A stretch of 37,714 nt of DNA from a virus (taxonomy: Duplodnaviria; Heunggongvirae; Uroviricota; Caudoviricetes), in the IMG/VR virus record IMGVR_UViG_2526164601_000037. One strand, 5' to 3'. The translations under genes and the position numbers were made by a program. The notes beneath the pieces were generated by a model. The model was not told the DNA's origin. It did not search any database and was given only the letters and a program-made list of their open reading frames with translations. Positions 5,267 to 37,714 of the stretch are shown here, piece by piece. How positions within the stretch are numbered: the stretch's first letter is position 1; each line of letters begins with the position of its first letter.

Positions 5267-5287
5267 AACCGCGCCAGCGGTTTTTTT
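5267..5287 (+). terminator. Weak candidate intrinsic terminator
   Basis: Short hairpin CCGC-GCCA-GCGG (5269..5280) followed by TTTTTTT (5281..5287). Confidence 0.35.
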
Positions 5288-5697: not shown

Positions 5698-5769
5698 TTC
5701 CTGTTCCGGGCCTTTCCTGCACCTTGCGGCGGGAGGCCTTCGCACATCTGTAGTAAAGAGAATTGCAGC

Positions 5770-6159: not shown

Positions 6160-8996
6160 GTGAGTTTGCATGGAGCTGGAATGAACCACGGCCAGCCATT
6201 GATCCAGCCAGATTTACGGAGCACAGGCAGGAAACTGAAACCGACCTGCAACGCGCCATCCGTTACTACCTTGAGGCGGACAAAAGGGCACAGAAAGAAC
6301 AGGAAGCGAAGGAAGAAGCCTTTTTCGCACAATCCGCCATGGGTAAAAAACTCATGGCATCCCTTGAGGAAGCCGGACAGCGTGAAAAGCTGGCACAGAG
6401 CATCATCAGTAAGCGCCGGGCAACAGAACAAGACCCGGTAGCCCGTGCCTTTGCCACACTGAAGGCGCTTCCCGTTTATCTGCGAGAACCTCTGAGCCGC
6501 CACCTCTCTTTCCTGCGCAAGAAGCAGGAAGCCGATCGTCAGAAAGGCAAAAAGAGCTGGCAGGCGGAACGCTATGCACGCGGAACCCTGCGCAAAATAT
6601 TCGAACGTCTGGACCGCACCGACAGCCGCTGGCTGACACCGGGTTATCGCTCCCTTGCCGGACGCGAACGCCTGGACGATTTACTTTACCTGCCGCAGCT
6701 CAACAAACACCAGATACAGACGCTGGCCACCATGACGGCGGCGATGTTCAGCAGCACCTTCGAAAAACTCTGCGATGGCTTTGGCGCGACTGATGGCGAA
6801 CTGACCATGGATGTAACGCTGAAGGCGTATCAGATGCTGGCCCGCATGGCGTTACACCTGCACGCCATGCCTCCGCATTATGACGCACTGACAACAGACA
6901 AAGACCGGAGGAACGAACCGGACACGGAGCTGCTGCCGGGCGCAATCCTTCGCCTGACCTGTGCGGAATGGTGGAAACGAAAACTGTGGCTGTTACGTTG
7001 CGAGTGGAGAGAAGAACAACTCCGCGCCGCCTGTCTGGTTTCCAGAAAAACATCGCCCTATCTGAGCCAGGACGCGTTAAGCGAGTTTCGCGCACAGCGC
7101 GAGAAAACACGCGATTTCCTGAAAAGTTTCATGCTGGAAAATGAAGACGGGTTCACGATTGATCTCGAGACGGTGTATTACGCGGGAGTAAGTAACCCGG
7201 TTCACCGTAAGGCAGAAATGATGGCCACCATGAAGGGGCTGGAACTTCTGGCCGAAGCCCGTGGCGACAAAGCGGTGTTTCTGACTGTCACCTGCCCGTC
7301 AAAATACCACGCCACAACAGAGAACGGTCATCCGAATCCCAAATGGAACGGGGCCACCATGCGCGACTCCAGTGATTACCTGGTTAACACGTTTTTTGCG
7401 GCGGTCCGCAAGAAACTGAACCGCGACGGCCTGCGCTGGTATGGCATCCGCACGGTGGAGCCTCACCATGACGGCACCGTGCACTGGCATATGATGGTCT
7501 TTGCACATCCGGAAGAAATCGACACCATTGTGTCCCACACCCGCGATATTGCCATTCAGGAAGATCGTCACGAGCTGGGTGATGATATTACCCCACGCTT
7601 TAAGGCGGAGTACGTCGACGGCTCAAAAGGCACACCGACCAGCTACATCGCCACCTACATCGGGAAAAACCTGGACAGCCGTGCCGTGGATGGCATCGAC
7701 CCGAAAACGGGCAAGCCACGCGTTGACCACGAAACAGGTAAATCAATGGCCGAGAGTGTGGAGCGCGCCATCGGCTGGGCGCGCCTTCACCGGGTCCGCC
7801 AGTTCCAGTTCTTTGGCATCCCCTCCCGTCAGGTGTGGCGTGAACTCCGCCGCCTTGCCAGCCAGATGGCACGCAACCCGGAAGGCCCGCAACGGCTGAA
7901 GGATGACGCAATGGATGCGGTACTCGCTGCCGCTGATGCCGGATGTTTTGCCACCTACATTGAAAAACAGGGTGGCGTACTTGTTCCGCGCAAGGACTAC
8001 CTGATTCGCACCGCCTACGACCTCGCAGATGAGCTGAACGATTACGGCGAACAGAGTGTACAGATTTACGGGATCTGGTCGCCATTCATCGGGGAATCCT
8101 CCCGTGTGTGCACGCATCCGGATAACTGGAAGCTGGTAAGACGTAAACCGGAAGTGGAAGACAGCGCCCGCGAAAATGGTTTTGACCTTCAGGGCGGCCC
8201 TGCCGCCCCTTGGACTCGTGGCAATAACTGTCCCCGTGTACAGGAAACGGACAACAACGGGACAGAACAGCCGGAAGAACGGCCAGCACCGTGGCCGCAG
8301 CTCCCTGACGGCGTTGAAGTGAACGAATGGATGCGCTCACTGAAACGACACGAACGCCGGGCGCTGATGCGTTCGCTTCGTGACAAACAGGCAAAAAACA
8401 GCAGCGATGAAATGCAGAGCTGGACACAGAGCCGCAAACAGCAGCGGCCTTTGCCTGATAACCACGAATTACTCGCTAAAGAATGGCGGGAGTCTGCTGA
8501 ATCTCTCGGCCTGCATATCGGTGAACAACAGATGCAGCACCTGTTACGGGGCGGCAGTCTGTACGTTGACGGCAGCATCATTGCACCGCAGGGATTTGAA
8601 ATTGTACGCAAACCGGATACCCGCCCGGACAGCCGAATCACGCAGCTCTGGCAGCGCCTGAGCCGTAATCACGGTGTAAGCAGCACGGAGATCCGCCATA
8701 ACCCGATCGCCAGCTATCTGGAACAGCTGGGGGCATCAGACCCTGAAGCCGCCACACGCCTGGCATCCACACTTCAGCAGGACCAGAACACCATGAAAAC
8801 ACCCGTTACCGTGCTTTCTGACATGCTGCGCGCCATCCGCGACGCAGAGCACGCACAGAGAATCAGTGAAACCACTGAACGTGCCCGCCGCAAAGCAGAC
8901 CTGCTGCGGGGTGGCCTGACCAGTGGAAACAAAAAACAGACAGAAACGGGACTCACGAATCCCGTAAATGAGCAAAAAACGCGCAGCGATATATGA
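6156..8996 (+). CDS. A: Rolling-circle replication initiator (endonuclease), P2 gpA family
   Basis: HUH-type motif HWHMMVF and tyrosine motif YIATYIGKN; position at the end of the early operon. Alternative GTG start at 6129. Confidence 0.9.
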   Translation: MSEFAWSWNEPRPAIDPARFTEHRQETETDLQRAIRYYLEADKRAQKEQEAKEEAFFAQSAMGKKLMASLEEAGQREKLAQSIISKRRATEQDPVARAFATLKALPVYLREPLSRHLSFLRKKQEADRQKGKKSWQAERYARGTLRKIFERLDRTDSRWLTPGYRSLAGRERLDDLLYLPQLNKHQIQTLATMTAAMFSSTFEKLCDGFGATDGELTMDVTLKAYQMLARMALHLHAMPPHYDALTTDKDRRNEPDTELLPGAILRLTCAEWWKRKLWLLRCEWREEQLRAACLVSRKTSPYLSQDALSEFRAQREKTRDFLKSFMLENEDGFTIDLETVYYAGVSNPVHRKAEMMATMKGLELLAEARGDKAVFLTVTCPSKYHATTENGHPNPKWNGATMRDSSDYLVNTFFAAVRKKLNRDGLRWYGIRTVEPHHDGTVHWHMMVFAHPEEIDTIVSHTRDIAIQEDRHELGDDITPRFKAEYVDGSKGTPTSYIATYIGKNLDSRAVDGIDPKTGKPRVDHETGKSMAESVERAIGWARLHRVRQFQFFGIPSRQVWRELRRLASQMARNPEGPQRLKDDAMDAVLAAADAGCFATYIEKQGGVLVPRKDYLIRTAYDLADELNDYGEQSVQIYGIWSPFIGESSRVCTHPDNWKLVRRKPEVEDSARENGFDLQGGPAAPWTRGNNCPRVQETDNNGTEQPEERPAPWPQLPDGVEVNEWMRSLKRHERRALMRSLRDKQAKNSSDEMQSWTQSRKQQRPLPDNHELLAKEWRESAESLGLHIGEQQMQHLLRGGSLYVDGSIIAPQGFEIVRKPDTRPDSRITQLWQRLSRNHGVSSTEIRHNPIASYLEQLGASDPEAATRLASTLQQDQNTMKTPVTVLSDMLRAIRDAEHAQRISETTERARRKADLLRGGLTSGNKKQTETGLTNPVNEQKTRSDI

Positions 8997-9041
8997 AGCG
9001 CGCACAAAACAGGCAAAAACGGGATTTCAGAATCCCGTAAA
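8944..9041. repeat. Two 25-bp dyad-symmetric repeats upstream of parM; candidate ParR-binding centromere or operator
   Basis: aaacgggactcacgaatcccgtaaa (8944..8968) and aaacgggatttcagaatcccgtaaa (9017..9041), each with an ACGGGA...TCCCGT inverted repeat; the first lies within the 3' end of A. Confidence 0.4.
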
Positions 9042-9072
9042 CGATTAATTAATCAACATAAGGAAAAGCGAC

Positions 9073-10032
9073 ATGAAAATTTGTATCGACGACGGCTCCA
9101 CCAACATCAAGCTGGCATGGACTGAGAACAGCGAACGCCGCAACGCCATCAGCCCGAACAGCTTCAAGTCGGAATGGTCTGCGCCGTTCGGTGGCTCGCA
9201 GCCTGCGAACTACATGCTTGATGGCGTGCGCTATGGTTTTGATCCGGTCAGCGATCGCTTTGTCCAGACGACCGACACGCAATACCAGTACAGCGATGTG
9301 AATGTAATCGCCATTCACCACGCGCTGGTCAAATCAGGCATCACACCACAGGAGGTGGATGTGGTTGTCACCCTGCCACTGAGCGAGTATTTCGACACAA
9401 ACGCACAGCCGGACATGGCCAACATCAACCGCAAAAAAGCGAACGTTATGCGCCCGGTGGAGTACCAGAACGGTGAGGCATTCACTATCCGTAACGTGCG
9501 GGTTATGCCTGAATCCATTCCGGCTGGCTTTAAAGCACTGGCTGACATGAGTCCGTTTGAATCCCTGCTGATTGTGGATTTAGGCGGAACCACGCTGGAT
9601 GTGGCAAAGGTTCAGGGACAACTGGCAGGTATCAGCCAGGTGTTTTGCGATCCACACGTAGGCGTTTCCCTGATGGCCGATGCCGTACTGTCGGTGATGG
9701 CCACTAACGGTATGCGTACCAGTCACCACATCGCCAATACCATTATCGAACATCGCCATGATGAAGCCTGGCTGCGCCAGCACATCCACAATGACGCGCA
9801 TTACAACAGCCTGATGGCGGTTATTCGTGAAAAGGAAGAAACACTGAAACAACGCGTGATCCGCGCGCTGGCGGGTTTTTCGGGTTACGGGCGGGTGATG
9901 GTTGTCGGTGGAGGGGCGGAGATTGTGGCACCCGCTATCCGCGAAGCCTGCGGAGTTAATGCGACTTTCATCGCGGACGGGGTGCCACAGTTTGCTCTGG
10001 TTAATGGGCTGTACGCAATGGACAAGGAGTAA
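9073..10032 (+). CDS. parM: Actin-like segregation ATPase, ParM/StbA family
   Basis: N-terminus MKICIDDGSTNIKLAW and motifs SPNSF, YSDVNVIAIHHAL, VMPESIPAG, LIVDLGGTTLD, VMVVGGGAE match plasmid R1 ParM as recalled; RBS AAGGAAAAG. Confidence 0.9.
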   Translation: MKICIDDGSTNIKLAWTENSERRNAISPNSFKSEWSAPFGGSQPANYMLDGVRYGFDPVSDRFVQTTDTQYQYSDVNVIAIHHALVKSGITPQEVDVVVTLPLSEYFDTNAQPDMANINRKKANVMRPVEYQNGEAFTIRNVRVMPESIPAGFKALADMSPFESLLIVDLGGTTLDVAKVQGQLAGISQVFCDPHVGVSLMADAVLSVMATNGMRTSHHIANTIIEHRHDEAWLRQHIHNDAHYNSLMAVIREKEETLKQRVIRALAGFSGYGRVMVVGGGAEIVAPAIREACGVNATFIADGVPQFALVNGLYAMDKE

Positions 10033-10036
10033 ACCA

Positions 10037-10348
10037 ATGACGACACCAACCAGACGGATAAGTTTCTATCTGAAGCCCGCCGCCGTCAAGAACGAAGGCG
10101 AAGCATGCGCCTGGCTGGACAGCCTTACACCAGAAGCCCGCAAAAGCGGCCAACGCGTGGCTTTTCTGGCCGGGCTGGCACTTCTGAAAATGAATCCGGC
10201 AGAGGCTTACCGACTGGCTGCATGGGCTGACGATGAGGCGTTATCGGTGACACAAACCAGGACAGAACGCCCCGTGTCACAGCCAGTACCAACCGCACAG
10301 ATAACCAGTCAGATGGCAGGGAATATCCGGGCATTATTTCCTGAATGA
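10037..10348 (+). CDS. parR: ParR-like centromere-binding adaptor
   Basis: Immediately downstream of parM with strong RBS AAGGAG; ISFYLKP, AGLALL and C-terminal RALFPE resemble R1 ParR as recalled. Start trimmed to the ATG at 10037. Confidence 0.7.
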   Translation: MTTPTRRISFYLKPAAVKNEGEACAWLDSLTPEARKSGQRVAFLAGLALLKMNPAEAYRLAAWADDEALSVTQTRTERPVSQPVPTAQITSQMAGNIRALFPE

Positions 10349-10408
10349 CGAATTTGACGGCTTTTAATTTTATCGGGGTGCACTGTCGCCCCGCACGAGG
10401 AAAACACG

Positions 10409-10933
10409 ATGAAAAAATACGAATACATGCTAATGAAAGAAGCACTGCGGGCTGGTCTGGCTCCCTGTCCTGTATCCGTAGAAGCTGTTGTTGGGAACAC
10501 GATTTTCCGAACGCTGCGAAATCGCGTATCCGTGAAGATGATTCACCAACCACCCAAATCTACCAGCATGATCTATCTGCCGCTGCCCGAGGCTATCAAA
10601 CTTATGCGTTCGCTGAAATTTGCGATTTGGATGCAGACACAACTCAACAAAGCGGTGCAAAACACCTTCGTTAAGAAACTGATGCCGGAGCTTGCTGCCA
10701 GATGTGCAAAATGTACCAGACCCGCACTTCAATTTGATCTGTCATTGATTCAACAAGCTACGGAGGCAGAACTGTACCGCCTGTCACCTCTCCATGATGC
10801 TCACACGGAAGCCTCAGAAATGTTCCGGCTCATGTTTCAATTTAATTTTGCCGTTCGACGCACACGCATTCAGGTCAATCGCATGATGCAGGCGCAGGAA
10901 GAGCTGACGCAACACAAAGGAGGCAACCAGTGA
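10409..10933 (+). CDS. Hypothetical protein in the A-to-Q cargo region
   Basis: ORF track, 174 aa, RBS GAGG eight nt upstream; no similarity recognised. Confidence 0.55.
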   Translation: MKKYEYMLMKEALRAGLAPCPVSVEAVVGNTIFRTLRNRVSVKMIHQPPKSTSMIYLPLPEAIKLMRSLKFAIWMQTQLNKAVQNTFVKKLMPELAARCAKCTRPALQFDLSLIQQATEAELYRLSPLHDAHTEASEMFRLMFQFNFAVRRTRIQVNRMMQAQEELTQHKGGNQ

Positions 10934-11105
10934 GCAAAATTGACTATCAGGCATTACGCGAGGCGGCACAAAACTATCAATCGACGCTGGCGTGGTATGA
11001 GGTTGACGCGGGCTAGTTTTGCCGCAAGGATAATTCGTTTCAGCGGGTGATTTTTTGCGCTATCATTCCGGCAGTGGTTCACGATTATTGGCAGGAAAGG
11101 CAATT

Positions 11106-11699
11106 ATGAGCAGTAAAAAAAATAAAATAACATCTATGGCCGCAGCGCTGGCGGTGGCTCTCGCCCCTGTTCCTGCCAGTAGCATTGTGCATCATGACTT
11201 ATCAATCTCCCGGCACAGTACGTCTACGCTATCCCTCCAGGACGTAAAGGATTCTGTGGCATACCTTCCTATTGATGAGGCCACCAGTTATATGCTTAAC
11301 CTGGCTGATAGGATGAAGACACACAGGGCAAACCTTCGCATCGAATGGGAAGAAAAGCAGATCCCTATTATTCTGAAAAATCAGAAAAAAGAGACTCAGG
11401 AAGGGTTTGAAAGCCTTTTCCGTCATATTGCGGTATGTGCAAGTTTTGTCGAGGCTGCAAGGGTTGCGCTGAAAAGCGTACCTGAAAGTAACGCGGAACT
11501 GAGAAAAGAGATTGTCGCTTTTGCTCGTTCCGCTGCGACGCTCCGCTATACGATTGAAGATATTTTATCCTTCATTGAAAGCACGCATGTGCCGAAGAAA
11601 ACTTCAGATGCTGATCTGGGTGTTACCGCCGATCAGGTTCGCGCACTTATCCGCAGTGAACATAAAAAGCTGGGCCTTAAAGATCCAACGTTCCATTAA
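11106..11699 (+). CDS. Hypothetical protein upstream of the YafO-like toxin gene; candidate antitoxin or partner, not YafN-like
   Basis: ORF 11055..11699 trimmed to the ATG at 11106 (RBS AGGAAAGG); hydrophobic N-terminal stretch AAALAVALAPVPA; 9-nt gap to the downstream toxin gene. Confidence 0.55.
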   Translation: MSSKKNKITSMAAALAVALAPVPASSIVHHDLSISRHSTSTLSLQDVKDSVAYLPIDEATSYMLNLADRMKTHRANLRIEWEEKQIPIILKNQKKETQEGFESLFRHIAVCASFVEAARVALKSVPESNAELRKEIVAFARSAATLRYTIEDILSFIESTHVPKKTSDADLGVTADQVRALIRSEHKKLGLKDPTFH

Positions 11700-11708
11700 G
11701 GCAGGGCC

Positions 11709-12089
11709 ATGATTAAAGTCTCTGTCCACAATGACATAGAACTCCCCGCAGTTGCTCGTAAATATGCACATGCTTTGCAGTCATGGAAAAACGGCGGATC
11801 TTTACCCTCAGTCTTTGGCAACGAAGGGCAGTGGGAAGATAGCGGGCGTCTTCGTGATTCTTTTGTTTTTAAGATTCACATTCGTTTACCTGATGAACAG
11901 CCGTGGCCTGCAAAGCTACCTGCCGCCTCGCGTAAATCAAACAGTTATCTTGTTTACTCCCGCCATTTCTTATATCCAGATAAGTATCAGCTAATCAGCA
12001 TTATGACACCCAATGCGCATGAGTTAGCCCGTACATCCTACATGGCAGAAATTGAGCGCAGAGCAGAAGAGTTCCAGTCTTCTTTTTGA
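11709..12089 (+). CDS. YafO-family toxin-like protein (ribosome-dependent mRNA interferase family)
   Basis: Segments SWKNGGSLPSVFG, FKIHIRLP, SYLVYSRH, QLISIMTPNAHELAR and MAEIERRAEEF align with E. coli YafO as recalled. Confidence 0.7.
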   Translation: MIKVSVHNDIELPAVARKYAHALQSWKNGGSLPSVFGNEGQWEDSGRLRDSFVFKIHIRLPDEQPWPAKLPAASRKSNSYLVYSRHFLYPDKYQLISIMTPNAHELARTSYMAEIERRAEEFQSSF

Positions 12090-12130
12090 GTTTTGCGACG
12101 ACTATCTATCAATCCCTTACTAATCTGAAA

Positions 12131-12160
12131 AGCTGCCTTTTGAAGGCGGCTTTTCTTTCT
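12131..12160 (+). terminator. Candidate intrinsic terminator after the YafO-like operon
   Basis: Imperfect hairpin AGCTGCC-TTTTGAA-GGCGGCT followed by TTTCTTTCTT. Confidence 0.45.
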
Positions 12161-12180
12161 TCCTGGCCTTCTTTCTCTGT

Positions 12181-12210
12181 TGCACAATAGTGCACAAATT
12201 TGCACAATTT
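12181..12210. repeat. Three helically phased 10-bp direct repeats TGCACAA(N3)
   Basis: tgcacaatag / tgcacaaatt / tgcacaattt at 12181, 12191, 12201; a fourth TGCACAA at 12273..12279; adjacent direct repeat GGATCCGT at 12251..12258 and 12262..12269. Confidence 0.5.
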
Positions 12211-26474: not shown

Positions 26475-26969
26475 TCAGAACAGCCCTTTAACGGAACTGG
26501 CCGCGCTGTTAAGGGATGATGTCACCTTATCTTTGAAGCCGCACAGCATATCGCTGAACGATGAAGATTGCAGGCGCTCCCGCAAATCCTCATCACAGCG
26601 TTCAAGAGTCAGTGAAAATTCTATCTTTTTCGCCTTACCGTAGCGATCAAACTCGGAACGGGTCGTATTCGTTTCAGTCAGTACATACATGCCGTAAATC
26701 TGCCCGACACCATCAATCAGAGGCCAGGGGCGTCCTGTATATGCCTGCGTGGTCAGCAACGAAAGCGACACTTCGCCACCTGTAATTTCAGGATAAAGCA
26801 CGCCGGAAAGCACGATGCGATCATCACCTGCGCCGATATACTGCCAGCTTGCTGAACGGTTAACGCGTTCATTTTTCACATGCCGCCAGCTTTTGTTTTG
26901 CTGTAACTGCTGATGCGGCAATGTGCGCAGCTCAAAAACAAACATGCCGTAGATCATCATCATGGCCAT
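26475..26969 (-). CDS. U: Tail protein, P2 gpU-like
   Basis: N-terminus MAMMMIYGMFVFELRTLPHQQLQQNKSWRH resembles P2 U as recalled. Confidence 0.85.
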   Translation of the reverse strand: MAMMMIYGMFVFELRTLPHQQLQQNKSWRHVKNERVNRSASWQYIGAGDDRIVLSGVLYPEITGGEVSLSLLTTQAYTGRPWPLIDGVGQIYGMYVLTETNTTRSEFDRYGKAKKIEFSLTLERCDEDLRERLQSSSFSDMLCGFKDKVTSSLNSAASSVKGLF

Positions 26970-26975: not shown

Positions 26976-29819
26976 TCAATCTTTATCGTAAAAACTGCCA
27001 CGTCCGGCACGGTCGCGTCGTTCCAATTCTGCCCTGACCATTTCACCGACCAGTTTCGCCAGTTCGCGGGGATTCTGCGTAACAACGTTATGCAGATGAA
27101 CATGAATTTCACCGCCAAATCCGGAGGCAACAGGCTCCCGGTTACGGGAAGTTGCAGGAACTGATGCCACTGGCGATCGTATGGCCTCCGCCACCGGGCG
27201 GGAGCTGGCCGTAACAACAGGGACCAGCGCCGGAGGCAGCGGAGCCGGAACCACGGGTGTGATCTTAATTGCGGGGGCAGGCTTACTGACCTGCGCAATC
27301 TTCCGCTCCTGCCACTCCCCACGAACAGCAAGTGCGCGGGGCAGGTTCTTAAAGACAATATCGCCAGGGCCAATGCGTTTTTTCGTCTCATCAACCAGCT
27401 TACCTGTGTTATCAGCAATCTTGCTGAGTCTGCGTAGCGTACCGGTATTGCTGTCTGTGAGCGGTTTGTTGTCTTTGGGTTTATCGCCTCCGGTGCCATT
27501 GCCATTTTCCGCAGACTTCGGCGGATTGATTTTCGCAATGTCCCCCTGAAGCAAGGCAACCTTGTCCTGAAGAATGGCCGCACGCTGTGCGTCTTCGATT
27601 TTCTTTCCCGCCCTTTCCGCTTCATCCGGAAGCACACCGAGTTTTTCAAGTATCCACGCCAGCGTATCCAGCAACATTTTTGCAGGCGTCAGAACAAGCT
27701 GTAACGCACCGCCAAGAACGTTACCGAATACCTCGCCAGCACTGGCACATTTATCCAGCGTTTCCTTGCTGGACTCCATCGGTGACAGCAGCGATTTAAA
27801 CCAGTTAAACACCTGGCTGATCCCGCTTCCGATTACGTCAAAAACAGGGCCAAACCGTTCAAAGGTTTCGCGCAACGGGGTCAGCCTTTCCATAATCCCG
27901 CTGAACACCCCGGCAAAAAATGCCCTGATGGGATCCCAGTATTTCCAGATAAGAACGGCAGCTCCGGCAAGCGCAGCCACGATAAGACCAACCGGACTGA
28001 ACAGCGCCCCGATAGCGCCTCCCAGTAAAGAAACGGAACCCGTCACCATTCCCCATAGTGCTGGCAGGACCCTGACAGCATTCATTGATCCGGTCAGGAG
28101 AGAAAAACCAAGACGCAGTTTTGCCAGCGGACCAGCAAGCACACCAATAGCCAGCGACAACGAGCCAACCGTTGCAGTCATTGCCAGCAACGCACCGCCT
28201 GCTATCAGTAGCTGGCGCGTCAGTGCCGGATGGGCCTGCGCCAGCGCCGTCACCCTTGATACCACCCGCGCGAGCCACTGCGTGACAGAACGCAGCGGAC
28301 CGTCAATCAGATCTGCAATGCGGATGCGCAACCCTTCCCATGCACTGCCGAGTGATTTCAGATCGCCGTCAAGGTTGTTGGCCATAACCTTTGCTGTGCG
28401 TTCAGCCTCACCGCGCGCGCCTTCAAGTTCTTTTCTCAGTTTGGGTAAGGAACCGTCACCCGCTGCATCAACGAGCGCCATAAACGATGTGAATGCCTCT
28501 TCTCCGGCAATGTCCTTAAAGAACGATACCCGGTCAACTTCCCCGTATTTGCGGGTGGCTTTATAAAGGTCGGCCAGCACATCTTCCATCGGGCGCATTT
28601 TGCCCCCGGCATCCGAGACGGACACGCCCAGCTCTTTCAGAGCTTCTGCCGCCGCCTTTGGCGGTGATGCCAGACGAGCCAGGCTGGCACGCATTGCCGT
28701 CCCGGCATCACTCCCTCTGATGCCCATATTCGCCAGCACGCCAGCCATCGCTGCGGCCTGTTCCAGCGATATTCCCAGCTTACCCGCCACCGGACCTGCA
28801 TATTTCATGGTTTCGCCCAGTGCGCGAAGGTCAGTGTTGGTACGGGTAAACGCTGCGGTGAGTGTGTCACCGACCCGGTCCATCTGGTCAGCAGAAAGGC
28901 CGAACTGCGTCAGGATATTTGAGCCAATATCTGCCGTCTCGCCGAGATCCATACCGCCAGCCGTTGCCATGCTCAGCACGCCGGGAAGCGCAGCCTGAAT
29001 GGCCTGCGGAGTGAAGCCAGCCATTGCAAGAAATGCCTGTCCACTGGCGGCATCGCCTGCGGTGAACTGCGTTTCAGAGCCAAGTTTTAACGCCTGCTCA
29101 CGCAGCGCCTTAAACTGCGGGCTGTTCTGGTCGATTCGCGTCAGTGCCTGAACGCGGGACATCTCTTTGCCGAACCCGATCGCAGGCTGCAAAAAACGCC
29201 CGGCAGCATAGCCGCCCGCCGCTGCCGCACCAATTGCCAGCGCACCACCTGTTTTCAGTTTTCCCGCTGTTTCCTGCGCGCGCGAATACCGCTCACGCGC
29301 CCGCGTTACACGCGCAAGCGCCTGCCGTTCGCGTTCAAGCTGGTTGTTGTACTGTTCGGTGCGTCTGATGGCCTGCTGGATGGTGTTATCGCTGCCTGTC
29401 AGGGAAATGCCGTGGCGTTTCAGCTCTCCGCCAAGCTCCCGCATTTTCTGAATTTCCCGTGTGCGCGATTCATTCAGGCGTTCAAGCCGGGTGCTTAACT
29501 GCTGCATCAGCTTTTGTTGTTTTTCGCTGAGCACTGTACCCGTGCGTTGTAACTGATTAAGGGCGTTAAGCTGGCGTCGTGCTTTCACGATACCCGCATC
29601 CGCTTTACTGACAGCGTCGCGGGCGCGCTCAAATGAACGCGCCTGACGCTCGAGATTTTTGATCGCCCCCTGCGTTCGCTGGATGGAGTCACCAAACTGC
29701 CCCATCAGGCGGCGTGCGTTTTCGGCAGGTCGGGTCAGCCTGTCAACGGCGCTGAAAGCGACCCGGATATCAAGAGTCTTCATTGTCTGCATTCCCGCTG
29801 CGAAGTGCCGCCCGCTCAC
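26976..29819 (-). CDS. T: Tail tape measure protein, P2 gpT-like
   Basis: ORF track, 947 aa; Ala/Gly-rich hydrophobic stretches typical of tape measure proteins; position between E/E' and U. Confidence 0.85.
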   Translation of the reverse strand: MSGRHFAAGMQTMKTLDIRVAFSAVDRLTRPAENARRLMGQFGDSIQRTQGAIKNLERQARSFERARDAVSKADAGIVKARRQLNALNQLQRTGTVLSEKQQKLMQQLSTRLERLNESRTREIQKMRELGGELKRHGISLTGSDNTIQQAIRRTEQYNNQLERERQALARVTRARERYSRAQETAGKLKTGGALAIGAAAAGGYAAGRFLQPAIGFGKEMSRVQALTRIDQNSPQFKALREQALKLGSETQFTAGDAASGQAFLAMAGFTPQAIQAALPGVLSMATAGGMDLGETADIGSNILTQFGLSADQMDRVGDTLTAAFTRTNTDLRALGETMKYAGPVAGKLGISLEQAAAMAGVLANMGIRGSDAGTAMRASLARLASPPKAAAEALKELGVSVSDAGGKMRPMEDVLADLYKATRKYGEVDRVSFFKDIAGEEAFTSFMALVDAAGDGSLPKLRKELEGARGEAERTAKVMANNLDGDLKSLGSAWEGLRIRIADLIDGPLRSVTQWLARVVSRVTALAQAHPALTRQLLIAGGALLAMTATVGSLSLAIGVLAGPLAKLRLGFSLLTGSMNAVRVLPALWGMVTGSVSLLGGAIGALFSPVGLIVAALAGAAVLIWKYWDPIRAFFAGVFSGIMERLTPLRETFERFGPVFDVIGSGISQVFNWFKSLLSPMESSKETLDKCASAGEVFGNVLGGALQLVLTPAKMLLDTLAWILEKLGVLPDEAERAGKKIEDAQRAAILQDKVALLQGDIAKINPPKSAENGNGTGGDKPKDNKPLTDSNTGTLRRLSKIADNTGKLVDETKKRIGPGDIVFKNLPRALAVRGEWQERKIAQVSKPAPAIKITPVVPAPLPPALVPVVTASSRPVAEAIRSPVASVPATSRNREPVASGFGGEIHVHLHNVVTQNPRELAKLVGEMVRAELERRDRAGRGSFYDKD

Positions 29820-30299
29820 GCCAGCTAACCACTTCGCCGGGCGTCATCATGAAGATTTCGGCGGGCGACCAGTTAAAAATAACGGCAATATCTGCCACAA
29901 AGTCTTCTATGTGCTCAAAGCACACAACCGTGATCAGGCTTCCGTCGCCTGTTCGTTCTTCCCGCCAGAGTCCGCACCGCTCAAAAAATTTACGGCAACC
30001 ACACATAACTGAATAAAGTCACGGGATGCCATTTTTTTGATCGTCACTTCATCCAGTCGCGGTGATGTCACGCGTGACAGCAGCGAAAACATGGATTCCG
30101 CTTTCAGACTCAGCACATCAGACAGCGACAAATCTCGCAGAGATCCAGCCTGCTCAATAGCCCCGGTGATCTCCACATACGTGATTTTTTCGCCGCTTCG
30201 CTCAATTGGTTGGGTAAGTTTTACGCCACGCTCACTGGTTTCTTTCACAGTGTCAGTAACTACCGTGTTTTCGGTATCGATGTTTTTCGTCTCTTTCAT
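29770..30299 (-). CDS. E': E+E' fusion produced by programmed -1 ribosomal frameshift
   Basis: Slippery heptamer T_TTT_TTG on the minus strand (plus-strand caaaaaa at 29982..29988), 16 codons before the E stop; the -1 frame continues as FFERCGLWREER... to 29770, overlapping the T start as in P2. Confidence 0.7.
29934..30299 (-). CDS. E: Tail assembly chaperone, P2 gpE-like (0 frame)
   Basis: ORF track; C-terminus VAVNFLSGADSGGKNEQATEA spans the slippery site. Confidence 0.8.
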   Translation of the reverse strand: MKETKNIDTENTVVTDTVKETSERGVKLTQPIERSGEKITYVEITGAIEQAGSLRDLSLSDVLSLKAESMFSLLSRVTSPRLDEVTIKKMASRDFIQLCVVAVNFLSGADSGGKNEQATEA

Positions 30300-30353
30300 C
30301 AGGAAACTCCTTTCAGTCAGAGGCGACGCACTGCGCCGCCTGCATATTACTTA

Positions 30354-30866
30354 TCAGCCAAGCCCAAGCGCGGAACGGATGCGATCGGGCACAATGTCCT
30401 TGCCGTCCTTCCGGTAAATGAAGTTCAGCAGGTCAATCTCCCACAACGGGCGATCGTTAACACTCAGCTTGTAGTAGGTGTTTTTAATGGCATAAGTGTG
30501 TGATGTGGCTTCGCCCTGTTTGGCTTCCCCCATATCAATTTCCGTCACACGTCCGCGCATTTCGACTTCATACAGATCGCTTTCTGCATCGGTGTAGTAT
30601 TCACCCGCAAAACGCAGCAGTGTGCCGTCAATCGTGCCGCCATACTTAAGGAACAGCTCACGAACTGCGCCCCCCATGACAAAGCTCGCATCAAGCGCGG
30701 AGTCGTCCAGGCCGAGATCAATACTTACCGCCCCCATCATGCCACCACCCCGGTAGCTGTCGGTTTTGCGCGTCAGCTTAGGCAGAGTGACGGACGTCAC
30801 CTTACCCACTTCGTTTTCACCATCCACAAACAGCGTAAAAAAGCGAAGATGTTTTGGCACAGCCAT
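30354..30866 (-). CDS. FII: Tail tube protein, P2 gpFII-like
   Basis: ORF track, 170 aa; position between sheath and E. Confidence 0.85.
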   Translation of the reverse strand: MAVPKHLRFFTLFVDGENEVGKVTSVTLPKLTRKTDSYRGGGMMGAVSIDLGLDDSALDASFVMGGAVRELFLKYGGTIDGTLLRFAGEYYTDAESDLYEVEMRGRVTEIDMGEAKQGEATSHTYAIKNTYYKLSVNDRPLWEIDLLNFIYRKDGKDIVPDRIRSALGLG

Positions 30867-32050
30867 CAGGCACCTCCCAGCACCGCAAATGCGGGTTCAA
30901 AGTATTCATCAGTAAACGTCTGGTAAAGCTCCATGTCTTCCAGTGGCGGAACGGGCGTATATTTGTAGCGAATACGCACACGTCCCTGACGTAAATCCGT
31001 GGTGCTGTTATCCACCACGTCATACCAGCACTCCGCGCCAATCAGTTTCCCGGCAGTAACCAGTGAATCCAGTTTTGCCCTGATGGCACTGATAACATCC
31101 TTCACGTTCGCAGGCGTCAGTGGACTGTCGATGGTTTCAAACTGCGCTTCCGCAATTGAATCAGCCAGCACCTGTGCGGTTCGGGTATACACCTCAAAGA
31201 TGTAGGCGTTCGTTTCCGGTGTGCGGTTGCCCCAGAAGCGGAACCCGTTGCGACGAATAATGGTCGTGATTTCTTTGTTGTTGAGGCTGTTGGCATCGCT
31301 GTCTTCGGCCTGCAACGACCAGAACACATGCCTCGACATCCCCAGCACATTTTTAACCGGAACGTTGGACAGTGATTTGTGCCATCCCTGCTCATGGTCA
31401 ATGTACGCACGAAGGCCGCACGCATAGGCAGACGCGGGGAACGTTTCGTTTTTGCCACTTTTCGGGTTGTAGGCGATGAAGTCCGGCCATAAGAGCATCA
31501 CCTCACGTTCGTTGAATTTCTGGCGGTAGGTAATCGCCTCAGCCATCGTGTTACAGCCGTGACATGAGGCATACACAAACGCGCGCAGTTTACCTGCAAT
31601 CACGCACAGGGATTTTGTTACAGCCTCCGTGTCCAGCTCCGGCGCGGCCAGAATACGCGGACGGTATCCGATGCTTTCATCCTGCTCTGCAACAAGCAGC
31701 GCATACATCCCCGTATAGCTGCCGTCATCCTCAGAACCACCGATAACCAGTTGATCCTGCGTCTTTCCGTCTTCTTCTTTGTGTTCAGCCACGCGAACGA
31801 CGATCACCTTTGTGCTCACCTGGTCTGCGATGGCCTTAAGCGCACGATAAAGCGTCCCCGTTGTCCCGCATTTTCCCAGCACGTCATTGACGCGGGTCAG
31901 CAGTGTGGGCTTGTTCAGCGGGAACAGCTTCGCGTCCGCATCATCCGCCGTTGCCACGATACCGATAACGCTGGAATCAACATCGTTAATCGCTGTTACC
32001 AGGTCGGTATTTTCCGTAACACGGGCACCATGAAAACGAGTTTCACTCAT
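30866..32050 (-). CDS. FI: Tail sheath protein, P2 gpFI-like
   Basis: ORF track, 394 aa; first gene of the minus-strand FI-FII-E-T-U block. Confidence 0.85.
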   Translation of the reverse strand: MSETRFHGARVTENTDLVTAINDVDSSVIGIVATADDADAKLFPLNKPTLLTRVNDVLGKCGTTGTLYRALKAIADQVSTKVIVVRVAEHKEEDGKTQDQLVIGGSEDDGSYTGMYALLVAEQDESIGYRPRILAAPELDTEAVTKSLCVIAGKLRAFVYASCHGCNTMAEAITYRQKFNEREVMLLWPDFIAYNPKSGKNETFPASAYACGLRAYIDHEQGWHKSLSNVPVKNVLGMSRHVFWSLQAEDSDANSLNNKEITTIIRRNGFRFWGNRTPETNAYIFEVYTRTAQVLADSIAEAQFETIDSPLTPANVKDVISAIRAKLDSLVTAGKLIGAECWYDVVDNSTTDLRQGRVRIRYKYTPVPPLEDMELYQTFTDEYFEPAFAVLGGA

Positions 32051-32207
32051 AGCTTCAGCCCCTTGTATCCGTTAAATGATTCGGCAACAATCATCACCCA
32101 CCACGCGCGTAATCTCACCCCTGCGCCGTTCTCCCGCCACGGCGACAACAAAAAGCAGTAACCCCCTCCGCACGCACATGCGACCATGCCGCACAGGGAG
32201 GGAACAG

Positions 32208-33308
32208 ATGACCGATACCACCATGCAATTGCTCAGTCAGGGCACAGACCCCGTGAAAATGCCGGATTTTGATATTCTCGCGGAGGGTAAAACGCTGTCA
32301 GGCGTGGCAGAGCGCCTGATGAGCCTGTCACTGACCGACAACCGGGGATTTGAGGCGGACCAGCTCACCATCACGCTGGATGATGCGGATGGTCAGTTGC
32401 AGCTACCGCCACGGGGCGCGCGCCTGACGGTTCTCATTGGCTGGAAAGGAGAACCGCTGACAGAAAAAGGCACTTACATTGTTGATGAAATCGCTCACGA
32501 AGGACCGCCGGACAGGCTGACTGTTTCAGCCAGAAGCGCAGATTTTCGGGATGAATTTAACGTTAAACGTGAGGTGTCCTGGCATGATGTGACCGTTGAG
32601 CGTGTGGTATCCGCCATCGCTCATCGATGGTCTGAAACCGCAAATCAGCGAAATGCTGATGGATATCGAAATCGACCACGCCGACCAGACCGAAGAAAGC
32701 GACATGTCCTTTCTTACGCGCATGGCGGAAATGCTGGGCGCAATCACCACCGTAAAAAGCGGCAATCTGTTATTCATCATGCCAGGTGGTGGCGTGAACG
32801 CACAGGGCCAGCCGTTGCCCTCGTTCGCCATTACACGCAGCAGCGGCGATCGCCATCAGTTCCGTATTGCTGACCGCGAGGCGTATACGGGGGTACGCGC
32901 TTACTGGCTTGATCTTAATTACGGGAAAAAGAAAAAGTCAGCGTGAAACGCCGCAAACCGCCAAAACCCAAAAAGGAGAAAAGCAGCAGCCGTGAAGGTG
33001 ATTATATGGAAGGCGCGGAAGGAAATGTGTTTGTGTTACGCAAGACTTATCAGAACGAGCAGGCAGCAAGACGCGCTGCGGCGGCAAAGTGGCAGCAGCT
33101 ACAACGCGGAGCCGCATCATTCTCCATCACGCTGGCGCGTGGACGTGCAGAACTCTACCCCGAAATGCATGGCACGGTAACAGGATTTAAAAGCGAGATT
33201 GATAATCAGGACTGGATTATTGCAAAAGCCGAGCACACCATTGATAACAGTGGCTTTACCACGCAGCTTGAGCTTGAGGCAAAAATCCCGGAATGGATAG
33301 CAGAATGA
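32208..33308 (+). pseudogene. D: Gene D (P2 gpD-like tail/late protein) interrupted by two frameshifts
   Basis: gpD similarity runs through three frames: 32208 to about 32625 (LSLTDNRGFEADQL, SARSADFR), about 32626..32946 (FLTRMAEMLG, ITRSSGDRHQF, AYTGV), and 32943..33308 (GDYMEGAEGNVF, NSGFTTQLELE). Second shift lies in the A-run gggaaaaagaaaaag (32923..32937). Confidence 0.55.
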
Positions 33309-33472
33309 GACTCTTAAATGTATTAGTCCAGACACGTACTAGCGGGCTAAACGGCACAGTCTTATCTGACCATCTGCCCCTAACACAGAGCAGACGGTCC
33401 TTGATCTTACCCACTAATAATGGACGCGCGACTAATATAATTTATTGCTTTTTATTTATACCTCACTGAGAT

Positions 33473-34108
33473 TTAGCGAGCTAATATATTCAAAGAATTT
33501 AACAATTGAGTGTCGAGTGTTTCAGTTGCAGGAATCGGTAATCCATTCGCAATGCGGTAATTTTTCACAGACAGCCTTGTGGATGGCCCCATTATGCCGT
33601 CAATATTTCCGTTATAAAATCCCCTGTCCAGCAATGCGAACTGAACTCGCATAATCAATCGCTTACGTTTCTCTGCATCAGAAGCAAGCCCATTACTCGT
33701 ACGGTTAACCTCTGAAGTTCCAACAGAACTCGTGTTAGTGGTTCTATTATTATCGTTAGAACGAAGTGCACGCACCGAGGAAGAGGACGATGAGGAACTT
33801 GCACCTGAACTTGAAGAACCAGATGAACTTGGTGAGCTGTATGTTTTTGGATAATAGGGGGTACTTCCACCATAGTATCCACCACCTGATGAGGATCTAT
33901 GAGAGCTATGGCTCCTATGAGAGCTATGGCTTCGATGCCCTGCGATATAAAATGGGACTTCCGTGTTAAGTGGAGCTATCACTAAATCATGCTCATTAAG
34001 AGTCATACCAGGTAAATCACTCGCTCCTGTAGATGAATCGCTTGCCCATACAGAATTGTTGAGAGCCAAAAATCCCGGAAGTAGAGCAGCAAAATTAAAC
34101 TTTTTCAT
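33473..34108 (-). CDS. hxsA: His-Xaa-Ser repeat protein (HxsA-like precursor) with signal peptide, Ser-rich tract and C-terminal peptidoglycan-binding-like domain
   Basis: Start at the ATG at 34108 (MKKFNFAALLPGFLALNNSVWA); repeats HRSHSSHRSHSSHRSSS; poly-Ser tract; C-terminal LDRGFYNGNIDGIMGPSTRLSVKNYRIANGLP. ORF-track frame extends upstream to 34186. Confidence 0.7.
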   Translation of the reverse strand: MKKFNFAALLPGFLALNNSVWASDSSTGASDLPGMTLNEHDLVIAPLNTEVPFYIAGHRSHSSHRSHSSHRSSSGGGYYGGSTPYYPKTYSSPSSSGSSSSGASSSSSSSSVRALRSNDNNRTTNTSSVGTSEVNRTSNGLASDAEKRKRLIMRVQFALLDRGFYNGNIDGIMGPSTRLSVKNYRIANGLPIPATETLDTQLLNSLNILAR

Positions 34109-35217
34109 AAAATTGGTCTCGGTGATTGATGAAAACGGCCTTTTGAGGAACTGAAATAGCCAGCACAGGAAGGCTTCTGAGTACATTCATCACATTCTTT
34201 TGGATAGTAATTTTTCCAATCAGAGATCGACTGAACAGCAAGCTCCCTAGCCCTTTCAGGAAGATAACACAAAGGATAATTAAAAATTGTCAGAGGTATG
34301 CCTGACCTGTATGCAGCGTCTATGGCAGAGATTATTTTCTCACTATAACTACTGTGATCAATGAAGATGGTGGACCAGTTTTTTCGTGCCCAACCGATAG
34401 GCTCCAACCCCATAAGGGAAATCTGATTGATGTTGGAGAACACACGGCCAGCGAATTCTACAATATCATCCAATTCGGTATAGTTAGCCAGTGTAGGAAT
34501 AACTCTAAGTTCGATATTAATCCCCAAGTTTCCTGCATTGATTAACCCTTTAACCGTTTCATTAAATGCGCCATCACTCCCTACCAGATGATCATGCACA
34601 AGTGGTCTTGATGAGTAGAGCGGGATACCAAAGGTGATTTTGATCTTTTTGCTTCGCTTTGCCATTTCCTGTGTAAAGTTGATATCAGCAAATTTGCGTC
34701 CGTTTGTTAAAACATGTAAAGCAGTATCTGGTGAATTCTCGATGATAAAGTCAATGAAGTGAAGGAAGTCATCCCCATATAGCAAAGGTTCACCACCGCT
34801 GACCCCAACAACTCCGTTCAAGCCAAATGAAGCTATAGCAAGAGCTGATTGGGTAAGTAGCCAGTCATCATTTATTTTCTTTGGTGGCTGCGAACAAAAC
34901 AGACACAAGTTATTGCAGCGTTCCGTAACTAAGACAGTATTATGATTGGCTTTGCGTGACAGAATAACGCGTATCATATTGCCATTGTTGATTATCCCAA
35001 TATCTCCATCTTCAATTGACTCAAATAATTCAGTGCTAATAACAGAGAAATCAAAGCATGGTGGAATGGCATCATTATTGCCTTCAGCAACTACTAGCAA
35101 ATTGGGCAAAAAGAATAAAGGGTTCACTGGTTTTTGTTTGCATAACCGATAGAACCCCGTGGGCACGTTCTCTGTAGAAGCAAAATGAAAGATATCGTTC
35201 CTGATAACCTCAGACAT
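34105..35217 (-). CDS. hxsC: Radical SAM maturase of the His-Xaa-Ser system (HxsC-like; B/C assignment tentative)
   Basis: CNNLCLFC (CX3CX2C) cluster motif, GGEPLL SAM-binding motif, C-terminal Cys cluster CDECTQKPSC; overlaps neighbours by a few nt. Confidence 0.8.
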   Translation of the reverse strand: MSEVIRNDIFHFASTENVPTGFYRLCKQKPVNPLFFLPNLLVVAEGNNDAIPPCFDFSVISTELFESIEDGDIGIINNGNMIRVILSRKANHNTVLVTERCNNLCLFCSQPPKKINDDWLLTQSALAIASFGLNGVVGVSGGEPLLYGDDFLHFIDFIIENSPDTALHVLTNGRKFADINFTQEMAKRSKKIKITFGIPLYSSRPLVHDHLVGSDGAFNETVKGLINAGNLGINIELRVIPTLANYTELDDIVEFAGRVFSNINQISLMGLEPIGWARKNWSTIFIDHSSYSEKIISAIDAAYRSGIPLTIFNYPLCYLPERARELAVQSISDWKNYYPKECDECTQKPSCAGYFSSSKGRFHQSPRPIL

Positions 35218-36598
35218 ATGCCCATCCTTTTAGCATCTCAGCCTTCGAACCACCCTCTGAGATGCAGTTCATCAGATACCTGAACATCCCCTTGTGGTAT
35301 TGACAAAACGTTGAACGACTCCTATCACCGACAGGCTCACCCTGTACACTTATGTTCTGGCATGGATCTGAACCACAAAATGGTTGATATGCACATGTAT
35401 CACAACCTGGCAGAGCAAAATTGAACGATGAACTCAATACTGCGTTATAGTAAGGACTATCAGAAAATGATAGCGTCTTAACTTCACCCGCACTGAACTC
35501 CATTTCAGGATTCACCTTCTGCAACATACGGCTCTCATCGCTACCATATACTCGACCGTCATAATTGAAAAGAATACTGTTAAGCACGACTCCACTTGGA
35601 GACTTTAAATCCGCATAACCACTAAAACCGGGATTGAAGATCCTTTTCAGATGAATGGAGGCCGAATGTTCCACAACCCTTATCCCTTCATTATTAATCT
35701 TAAGGATTTCATCTATCAACGAGGCATAGAAGCTGAAGTATTCGTCCATAGAAAAGGTGAAAGAAGCTTTTTGTGCAAACCCATAGGGACTAACAGGTCG
35801 GATAAACATGTCCTTGAGACCAAGAGACAAGTGAGCCTGAACAATCGATTCAGGACGTCTGATAAGCTCTTTAGTAACTGTAGTAACCGTTGCAACGCGG
35901 CCAGCACCTAAAGAGTGTTTGATAGCCTCCACCCCTGACACTGTTCTACTGTACGCAAGCCCACGACCAAGAATTCGATTACTGTTGTGAACAACTTCCT
36001 CACCATCAAGCGACACAGAGAACGTTATGTTCCGGTCTCTCGACCATTCAATCATATCCTCATTCAAGACAGACAGACTTGATGCCACCACCATCTCAAA
36101 ATTGGTTCTTCCCAGCGTTTCAGCACATTGATCATAGATGCTCTGAATTAAATCAAACCGCAAGAGAGGCTCCCCACCCTGTATCTCTATTTTGTAAGGT
36201 GGCGTTGATAGTTTTTTAATAGCCGAAATAATATCGGGGATGAGCTCAGGATTTAGGTCGTAACCTAAGGCATTAACAGAAGCTCTACTAACCTGGCAAT
36301 ACTTGCATGTATGGTCACAACGTAATGTGGGTACAATCATGAAAATTGGCCTGACAGCCAGTTCATTCATCAATCGTTTTGCAAAAGCAGAACTTAAAGC
36401 ATAGGGAGTTATAGCAGATGAGCTTTCACTGGTTATGAAAAGCTTACTTTCTAGCACGTTTGATTGCTCCGAACTAATTCGCTCATCAGAAAGATCAATA
36501 AGGTCTTGCTCACCAATGAAATGATGAAAACCTGCAAGGTTGCTTATAAACACCTGTCCATTAGGCAATCTGTCAAAATTAAATGGCATCAATTCCAT
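35210..36598 (-). CDS. hxsB: Radical SAM maturase of the His-Xaa-Ser system with SPASM-like C-terminal Cys cluster (HxsB-like; B/C assignment tentative)
   Basis: CDHTCKYC (CX3CX2C), GGEPLL, C-terminal CDTCAYQPFCGSDPC; start overlaps the hxsD stop. Confidence 0.8.
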   Translation of the reverse strand: MELMPFNFDRLPNGQVFISNLAGFHHFIGEQDLIDLSDERISSEQSNVLESKLFITSESSSAITPYALSSAFAKRLMNELAVRPIFMIVPTLRCDHTCKYCQVSRASVNALGYDLNPELIPDIISAIKKLSTPPYKIEIQGGEPLLRFDLIQSIYDQCAETLGRTNFEMVVASSLSVLNEDMIEWSRDRNITFSVSLDGEEVVHNSNRILGRGLAYSRTVSGVEAIKHSLGAGRVATVTTVTKELIRRPESIVQAHLSLGLKDMFIRPVSPYGFAQKASFTFSMDEYFSFYASLIDEILKINNEGIRVVEHSASIHLKRIFNPGFSGYADLKSPSGVVLNSILFNYDGRVYGSDESRMLQKVNPEMEFSAGEVKTLSFSDSPYYNAVLSSSFNFALPGCDTCAYQPFCGSDPCQNISVQGEPVGDRSRSTFCQYHKGMFRYLMNCISEGGSKAEMLKGWAYV

Positions 36599-36912
36599 TA
36601 TGAAAGTCTCTCATCAACACTGCGAAGCACTTTATGGACAATAGAGTCTCTCAACGCCCCTGTTTTATGCTGTAGCTTTTCTCGCAAAGAGTAATCATTA
36701 AGCAGCCTATCGAATTCATAAAGGAATTTGGGATTATCGTTTTCAAAAGAGATTATCCAGTGGGAAACGTCTTCATGGAGTTTCCATCGAGTAAGCGGAG
36801 TCATCCAATATAGACTATTGCGTATAACCCATTCAGAATATAGTTCTTTCTCAAACACTCTTTCGCTCATTGCAATTATCTTCCAATACAAATATTCATG
36901 ATCAGCAACCAC
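36598..36912 (-). CDS. hxsD: His-Xaa-Ser system protein HxsD-like
   Basis: Contains LLNDYSLRE, matching the LLNDYxLRE signature recalled for the HxsD family; first gene of the minus-strand cassette. Confidence 0.8.
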   Translation of the reverse strand: MVADHEYLYWKIIAMSERVFEKELYSEWVIRNSLYWMTPLTRWKLHEDVSHWIISFENDNPKFLYEFDRLLNDYSLREKLQHKTGALRDSIVHKVLRSVDERLS

Positions 36913-37122
36913 TTTAAAGCGGATTTTTCCTATGGCAACAATAATATAACATATCCATAGATATGTTACAGATGCCTTGTTTCCCGTTGACTAATACATC
37001 ACAACGTTAGTAATGGCTATCACAATTGTGAACTTCCACTTTTCACACAAGACAAGCTGTTAATTGGAATCTGTATCAGTACAACTTAGAATAGCGGAAG
37101 CACCACAGTAAGGGAGGTCGCT

Positions 37123-37383
37123 ATGTTCCGTTGTCCACTTTGTGGCGCATCTGCCCGTATCCGCACTAGTCGTCCGGAAAATGATTCAAACACTGTGCGG
37201 CAAAAGTATTACCAATGTAACAACCTAGAATGCGGCGTATGCTTCTCAACACTGGAAGCTTTCCATAAATTCACATCGAAACACGCCTCCGGCGCTCACT
37301 CTTCAGAAGGTATCCCGTGGCATGAACTGCCAGCTTCACACAAAGGAAACAATCAGATGAGTTTGCCCTTACCTCAAAATTAA
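37123..37383 (+). CDS. ogr: Late-gene transcription activator, Ogr/Delta zinc-finger family
   Basis: MFRCPLCGASARIRTSRPE...YYQCNNLECG matches the P2 Ogr pattern (MFHCPLC...ARTSR...QC.N..C) as recalled; RBS AGGGAGG. Confidence 0.85.
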   Translation: MFRCPLCGASARIRTSRPENDSNTVRQKYYQCNNLECGVCFSTLEAFHKFTSKHASGAHSSEGIPWHELPASHKGNNQMSLPLPQN

Positions 37384-37473
37384 CAGGCAGAATTGCCGGA
37401 GTAACAAAAAAGAGATAGATTACGCGCGGGTGCCTTTCGGCTGATGGTCGGAGGGAATACCTGAAGGCCAGAT

Positions 37474-37707
37474 GTGGAAAGGCCCCGGAAAACATTTCTG
37501 TTTAACCGAGGCCCTAACCGCATTACCTTGACAAGTGAAAGGTTAGCGCCTCTCCGGAAAAGGAGCAAGTGCTATGTCGCAAAAATCGCTTACGGCCATC
37601 ACGTTCTGCGTGACGGCAATCCTCATCATCTGGATGTTGCACGGTTCGCTGTGCGAAATACGGATGAGCTTCTGGGGAGCGGAGTTTGCGGCGTTCTTAC
37701 AGTGTAA
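37474..37707 (+). CDS. Possible mok-like overlapping reading frame of the hok locus
   Basis: ORF track; overlaps nearly all of the hok-like gene in another frame, as mok does in hok/sok loci. Confidence 0.35.
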   Translation: MERPRKTFLFNRGPNRITLTSERLAPLRKRSKCYVAKIAYGHHVLRDGNPHHLDVARFAVRNTDELLGSGVCGVLTV

Positions 37708-37714
37708 GCAGTAA
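37574..37714 (+). CDS. hok: Hok/Gef-family membrane toxin (type I toxin-antitoxin)
   Basis: 46-aa product MSQKSLTAITFCVTAILIIWMLHGSLCEIRMSFWGAEFAAFLQCKQ with the SLCEIR motif and single TM helix; RBS AGGAG; stop codon is the last three bases of the window. Confidence 0.8.
   Translation: MSQKSLTAITFCVTAILIIWMLHGSLCEIRMSFWGAEFAAFLQCKQ

Follow-up and report, generated by a model that had tools for sequence, protein, structure and literature searches.

The prophage and its tail genes

The window, by which we mean the whole stretch of 37,714 nucleotides that was analysed (IMG/VR record IMGVR_UViG_2526164601_000037), is a prophage of E. coli DEC9E. It corresponds to the draft contig AIGO01000033.1 of that strain (assembly GCA_000249975.2), which is 100% identical to window positions 29943-36308. 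DEC9E is an stx-negative O26:H11 ST29 strain of the DEC collection (PMC5592225). On sequence grounds, the prophage is assigned to the P88-like phages of the P2 family (Xuanwuvirus, Peduoviridae). The closest finished genome is NZ_CP074781, in which the same element lies between btuC and ihfA. The first part of the element in that genome carries integrase, replication gene A, ParM, portal, terminase, capsid and tail fibre genes, and the later part carries the U-T-E-tube-sheath block, gene D, the hxsDBCA cargo, ogr and hok. Features of the window around gene D are listed in Table 1.

Between positions 26475 and 33308, the U, T, E, tube and sheath genes are encoded on the minus strand, whereas the plus strand carries gene D downstream of them and the tail fibre genes H and G upstream. 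Relative to the P2 'FETUD' operon, the FETU portion is thus inverted, which means that transcription of D must start at a separate promoter within the sheath/D intergenic region. A scan of positions 31900-33600 for promoters and terminators returned nothing above background. The sheath and tube genes have the same arrangement relative to D in phage P88_4B11, in the part compared (sheath, tube and the adjacent tail protein).

The cargo downstream of D is a His-Xaa-Ser system comprising two radical-SAM maturases and a repeat peptide; in P88_4B11 and many relatives, ogr is found directly 3' of D without hxs between them. At 26518-26520, between gpU and the tail fibre assembly genes, NZ_CP074781 has an IS600 element that is absent from the window, so that the window has the more intact copy here. 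The early region (2557-12182) is mosaic, with 90-97% identity to a relative that is 99.9% identical elsewhere. Among its genes are partition genes of ParM/StbB type, one for a YafO-family toxin (11709-12089) and one for an Ash-family protein. NZ_CP074781 has nothing corresponding to positions 10342-12182 and carries a Phd/Doc pair there.

Table 1. Gene D, its two deletion sites and neighbouring features, in window coordinates
Feature	Position	Strand	Remarks
Sheath gene	30866-32050	-	Divergent from D
Sheath/D intergenic region	32051..32207	.	157 bp; identical in the alignment with intact relatives, no difference noted
Gene D	32208-33308	+	Predicted baseplate hub
D segment 1, frame 0	32208..32627	+	Codons 1-140, ATG to Arg140 (CGG to CGA); protein identical to intact gpD
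Perfect inverted repeat CCATCG-CTCAT-CGATGG	32614..32630	+	Exists only through the GT deletion
GT-deletion junction	32626..32627	+	Intact homologues have CATCGGTATGG or CATCGGTACGG
D segment 2, frame +1	32629..32936	+	Gly142-Lys244 of intact gpD
TGA ending the frame-0 reading	32871..32873	+	Yields the 221-aa product; precedes the second deletion
A-run site of the 1-nt deletion	32926..32937	+	AAAAAGAAAAAAG (A6, intact) to AAAAAGAAAAAG (A5, window)
D segment 3, frame 0 again	32937..33308	+	Val245 to Glu367 and stop codon
TGA ending the frame +1 reading	32944..32946	+	Shares bases with the GTG start (32943-32945) of the 121-aa third ORF
His-Xaa-Ser system (hxsA, hxsC, hxsB, hxsD)	33473-36912	-	Cargo between D and ogr
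ogr/Delta zinc-finger late activator gene	37123-37383		Coordinates mapped from NZ_CP074781
hok/gef toxin gene	37574-37714		Window end is the exact hok end; coordinates mapped from NZ_CP074781

Two deletions in gene D

Window positions 32100-33400 were aligned with NZ_CP074781 and with phage P88_4B11. The alignment with NZ_CP074781 contains exactly two gaps and no substitutions in 1301 nt, giving 100% identity to the intact gene apart from the two indels. Compared with about 1000 intact orthologues, D lacks exactly 3 bases. At the upstream site, GT is missing between 32626 and 32627, which converts CATCGGTATGG to CATCGATGG. At the downstream site, a single A is missing from the second A-run (the A6 run of intact genes, 32932-32936 in the window), which is the only A6 run and the longest homopolymer in D. 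A sequence-only reading of the window had proposed that gpD homology is continuous at the protein level but requires two frame changes, and both alignments bear this out. The positions given there (32615..32630 and the A-run at 32923..32937) proved accurate, as did the proposal of a small deletion at the upstream site. That reading also described D as split across three reading frames; there are only two frames, in three segments, and only 32629-32936 is shifted.

The first and third segments share a frame (coordinate mod 3 = 0) because the two deletions sum to 3 nt. Translation from the ATG yields 140 native residues followed by 81 out-of-frame residues, and D as recorded encodes three pieces: this 221-aa product, an internal ORF without a proper start, and a 121-aa C-terminal ORF with a GTG start. 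In GenBank, the 221-aa and 121-aa products of DEC9E are EHW58302.1 and EHW58303.1. Mutual compensation of the frameshifts (-2 then -1, a net -3) was considered and ruled out, as frame 0 has a stop at 32871-32873 and two more ahead of the second site.

At the GT site, the intact sequence is an imperfect palindrome, CCATCG-CTCAT-CGGTATGG, which the deletion makes perfect. Of all 2-bp deletions in D, 2.4% create a perfect inverted repeat of at least 6 bp across the junction (p about 0.024, post hoc). No homopolymer is involved in the GT deletion, which, judging from the repeat, looks like polymerase template switching, either in vivo or in library preparation. If the deletion is a plain consensus error, no explanation gives a full account of this signature.

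The product of gene D

With both sites repaired, D encodes a protein of 367 aa (P0033), which is recorded on 539 contigs. The repaired protein matches PF05954 (Phage_GPD) with 63.2 bits over residues 91-349 (cut-off 30.1). In their recorded form, the fragments reach 17.6 and 28.4 bits, and no score is obtained for the 221-aa product. Residues 18-356 of the repaired protein are homologous to the R2 pyocin hub (6U5H chain C, E = 5.4e-41), and the three chains in the 6U5H entry, combined with this homology, support a trimeric hub role. D also occupies its place in a P2-type tail cluster (sheath, tube, E, T, U, D, ogr), with sheath-to-U inverted relative to D and hxsDBCA located between D and ogr. 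Taken together, gene D is predicted to encode the trimeric baseplate hub of P2 gpD type; in place of a single ORF of about 365-370 codons, the record has the three pieces in two frames. In P2, D belongs to the FETUD group of tail genes and is essential, and a true null would give tail-less particles.

The A-runs of D are located in a Lys/Pro-rich stretch at residues about 241-270. A 9-bp in-frame deletion polymorphism in this linker, at window positions 32961-32969 (CCAAAACCC), is present in contigs L011 and L028, and the match in phage P88 is 9 bp shorter, which is consistent with the same deletion. The linker of gpD appears to tolerate length changes.

Annotation of D varies between records. 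For D of NZ_CP074781 (3109-4212 of locus L001) and of most RefSeq matches, RefSeq/PGAP gives a 'contractile injection system protein, VgrG/Pvc8 family' of 264 aa that is short at the N-terminus, and adds a partial 'hypothetical protein' pseudogene on the opposite strand. The full 367-aa ORF is open, and many records list it under the name 'phage late control D family protein'.

A probable second assembly of the strain

Three contigs from the Logan assembly of SRR124113 cover window positions 29945-35039, 5276-6406 and 35115-37461. Over these about 8.6 kb there are no substitutions relative to the window, and all five DEC9E alleles in range that are distinct from NZ_CP074781 (at 30086, 30576, 34750, 35155 and 36267) are present. 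The exact 462-aa HxsB of the window was found on one contig in the whole collection, SRR124113_1628, which is the contig covering 35115-37461. A 129-aa early protein, recorded on only 8 contigs, is likewise found in SRR124113 (on the contig covering 5276-6406). From the absence of substitutions, the shared alleles, the private HxsB and the rare early protein, we infer that SRR124113 is DEC9E or an isogenic isolate.

SRR124113 contig L005 reads CATCGGTATGG, with GT present and without the upstream frameshift. The strain therefore does not show this frameshift reproducibly. The A-run is A5 in SRR124113 as well, and D is there divided into two pieces of 246 and 121 aa. With A5 present in both assemblies, it must be supported by two reads or more. 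Besides the GT, SRR124113 and the record disagree at a single place, a T6 versus a T7 (record, 5276-5282), six bases from a contig end, which suggests homopolymer-length noise in the reads. Of the SRR124113 contig ends, one falls on a T-run and the others are uninformative as homopolymer markers. Because the reads seem to be homopolymer-noisy, the agreement of the two assemblies on A5 is weak evidence; both may rest on the same flow-based reads, and they would then not be independent at a homopolymer.

Distribution of the two deletions

The GT deletion is absent from all 996 finished E. coli genomes that contain this segment, from the contigs in IMG/VR and from the JGI metagenomes, and the 221-aa product was found in DEC9E only. 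The metagenome contig ERZ1749457 NODE_1098 (ENA; P0002/L017) was considered as a second case of the GT deletion and rejected, as its 2-bp deletion is a different one. At 1150-1176 of this unrelated contig (3x coverage), CGGTATGG is changed to CGGTGG in the same codon of D, which may be a coincidence or may indicate a small local hotspot.

A5 is found in one of 1127 finished E. coli genomes, that of KSC9 (NZ_CP018323), which is an error-laden assembly in which 8 kb contain five pseudogenes annotated as 'frameshifted', sheath, flk and a methyltransferase among them. In IMG/VR, A5 is present on 6 contigs and A6 on at least 120. Genomes with ids 2526-2534, the earliest batch, contribute 6/6 of the A5 contigs versus 13/80 of the A6 contigs among the matches listed, and a Fisher test of batch against A5/A6 with these 80 gives p about 6e-5. 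The six A5 contigs have different backbones; in three of these contigs, four additional 1-nt homopolymer indels are present within 3-4 kb.

The exact 246-aa product, expected from A5 alone, is recorded on 165 contigs. We rejected this number as proof of a real circulating A5 allele on the grounds of ascertainment bias, since the contigs were selected on the product and their number is inflated by noise. Seven of ten fetched loci represent one clone, the members of which differ only by further homopolymer indels, located in the tube gene and in intergenic DNA. Several A5 contigs (L006, L007, L011, L014, L027, L029 and L030) are free of any other indel, and A5 may arise for real too.

Accuracy of the draft and signs of decay

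The sequence-only reading had noted that the other large genes are intact, and according to the ORF list all of them are single long ORFs, with no other split gene in the window. No signs of relaxed selection were seen, neither as substitutions in D relative to the closest intact allele (NZ_CP074781) nor as other broken phage genes. The 25.5-kb late region differs from NZ_CP074781 by 13 SNPs and the missing IS600, and its only indels are the two in D. For the early region and the chromosomal flank, the indel count was made against draft relatives (L020-L022), finished relatives having at most about 97.6% identity there, and no indels were found in 12-15 kb. In about 39 kb of comparable sequence, the DEC9E draft contains no other indel, and each of the 30 homopolymers of at least 6 bases found there agrees with the reference. 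The draft is thus not generally sloppy. Given one error in D, the chance of a second within this 1.1-kb gene (the two are 308 bp apart) is about 3%, unless coverage was locally poor.

Good-quality related genomes have inherited neither lesion (GT in 0/996; A5 in 1/1127, that genome being frameshift-rich). Delannoy et al. described cas3 frameshifts in the drafts of DEC9E, DEC9A and DEC10D, for which error and real change were undecidable (PMC5592225).

Origin of the two frame changes

We regard it as likely that both lesions are sequencing or assembly artefacts and that D is intact in DEC9E. The two frame changes would then be a property of a 2012-era draft record rather than of the bacterium. 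For the GT deletion, this would mean an error of the consensus or the assembly, or a minority variant at the most. The change from A6 to A5 would be a homopolymer-length miscall at the only A6 run of D, a run that seems to be repeatedly miscalled in older or error-prone assemblies. SRR124113 would presumably be the homopolymer-error-prone read set of DEC9E itself, and the A5 call would probably be wrong in DEC9E too. We favour artefacts because the second assembly is discordant, both variants are nearly absent from reliable genomes, A5 shows a batch effect in IMG/VR and is tied to noisy assemblies, and everything else in the prophage is pristine. Against this stand the presence of A5 in both assemblies, the otherwise accurate draft, the occurrence of two lesions in one gene, and the position of the GT deletion outside any homopolymer.

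The sequence-only reading had offered real pseudogenisation, implying a defective prophage, and alternatively a homopolymer sequencing error at the A-run. The second of these is better supported. The first is disfavoured, as the GT deletion was not reproduced, A5 resembles a recurrent homopolymer miscall and there is no other decay. The split gene is a real observation in the record, and the conclusion that the prophage is defective is unsupported; most likely, the split is something ordinary and not a real feature of the organism. If D is intact, the record therefore holds no evidence of a tail-defective prophage.

Alternatively, only the GT deletion may be an artefact, of the GenBank consensus, with the change from A6 to A5 being a real slipped-strand mutation in DEC9E. 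D would then fall into two ORFs, of 246 aa (N-terminal) and 121 aa (C-terminal), and the prophage would be tail-defective or leaky. We consider this unlikely, though worth keeping in mind. Both assemblies of the strain have A5, which also occurs on several unrelated backbones and on contigs without any other indel, including a contig of 168 kb, and the wide recording of the exact 246-aa product points in the same direction. Since no homopolymer in D is longer than the A6 run, real slippage too would be most likely there. However, the virtual absence of A5 from finished genomes, where KSC9 is the sole and error-laden case, argues against such a mutation, as do its confinement in IMG/VR to one early genome batch, the variable homopolymer noise of many A5 contigs, and the possibility that the two DEC9E assemblies share flow-based reads. 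Even if true, the A-run frameshift would just be an ordinary inactivating mutation of a well-known tail gene.

That both deletions are real is in our judgement improbable. D would be a two-hit pseudogene in a defective remnant kept for its cargo (HxsABCD, Hok and the toxin-antitoxin genes), and SRR124113 would be a sister isolate or an earlier stock without the newer GT deletion. Both lesions are in the deposited record, they cluster in one gene of an assembly that is otherwise free of indels, and the GT deletion perfects a quasi-palindrome, which is a known signature of replication template switching. On the other hand, the GT deletion is found nowhere else, not even in the isogenic SRR124113 assembly, and neither substitutions in D nor other damaged phage genes accompany it. 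Since the frame-0 stop at 32871 precedes the second site, a second hit would also bring no selective gain.

A further idea, to which we give very little credence, is that DEC9E and other strains truly have A5 and that it works as a switch, either leaky or reversible. Prophage productivity would then be tuned through the A6 run as a contingency site, and the GT deletion would be a second hit templated by the quasi-palindrome. A -1 slip of tRNA-Lys on AAA-AAG (32932-32937) would restore the exact wild-type gpD, and as three hub copies suffice per virion, tailed particles could still form in low yield from a frameshifted D. That such a slip regenerates the wild type makes a real A5 allele only potentially leaky.

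Programmed recoding of D, with +1 and -1 shifts near 32626 and on AAA-AAG (32932-32937), respectively, has next to no chance of being correct and was rejected, together with any designed ribosomal or transcriptional slippage, because the two-frame arrangement is not conserved among homologues, essentially all of which have one open frame. A -1 slip at the A-run would yield exactly the wild-type YGKKKKVSV, and the G-AAA-AAG motif resembles the dnaX-type slippery site, which is prone to slippage; but D is one uninterrupted ORF in P88_4B11 (a single CDS), in 1126/1127 finished genomes and on at least 120 IMG/VR contigs, and 10 further phage records have match lengths that fit one ORF. Moreover, CAU-CGA-U offers no +1 site competent for re-pairing, 32622-32631 contains no plausible +1 site, the sole hairpin by the A-run (2 nt downstream) is weak and mismatched on the mRNA strand, and no Rfam match was obtained for 31900-33600.

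Returning to artefacts as the preferred explanation, a prophage that looks tail-defective in an old draft is probably complete. Calls of a pseudogene or a 'defective prophage' that are based on this record, or more generally on the AAAAAGAAAAAA site in D genes of P88-like phages, are untrustworthy without read-level support.

Comparison with known systems

The nearest known relative of this D is gene D of P88_4B11/P88, to which the repaired protein is 99.7% identical and the DNA 97.8%. In both, divergent sheath and tube genes lie upstream of D. The window differs by the 3 nt that are missing at two sites and by the end of the gene, which reads WIAE-stop at the junction with the hxs cargo, versus WIAETA-stop followed by ogr in P88_4B11. 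The gpD proteins of Wphi and other P2-like Peduovirus phages are about 48-50% identical to the repaired D. The R2 pyocin hub lacks most of the Lys/Pro-rich stretch, and the alignment with 6U5H chain C is gapped there.

The homopolymer artefacts of KSC9, which are of a type found in draft and long-read-only assemblies, include the identical A6 to A5 call in the same gene, and this call recurs on unrelated backbones. In contrast to such assemblies, the DEC9E window has no other indel where it was compared, and its second lesion lies outside a homopolymer. A frame change inside a tail gene is also known from the P2 family in the programmed -1 frameshift of the tail chaperone genes E/E+E' (here at 29770-30299, minus strand). 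The E/E' shift is conserved and is annotated in relatives as a separate GpE family protein, whereas the changes in D are private or nearly private to this record.
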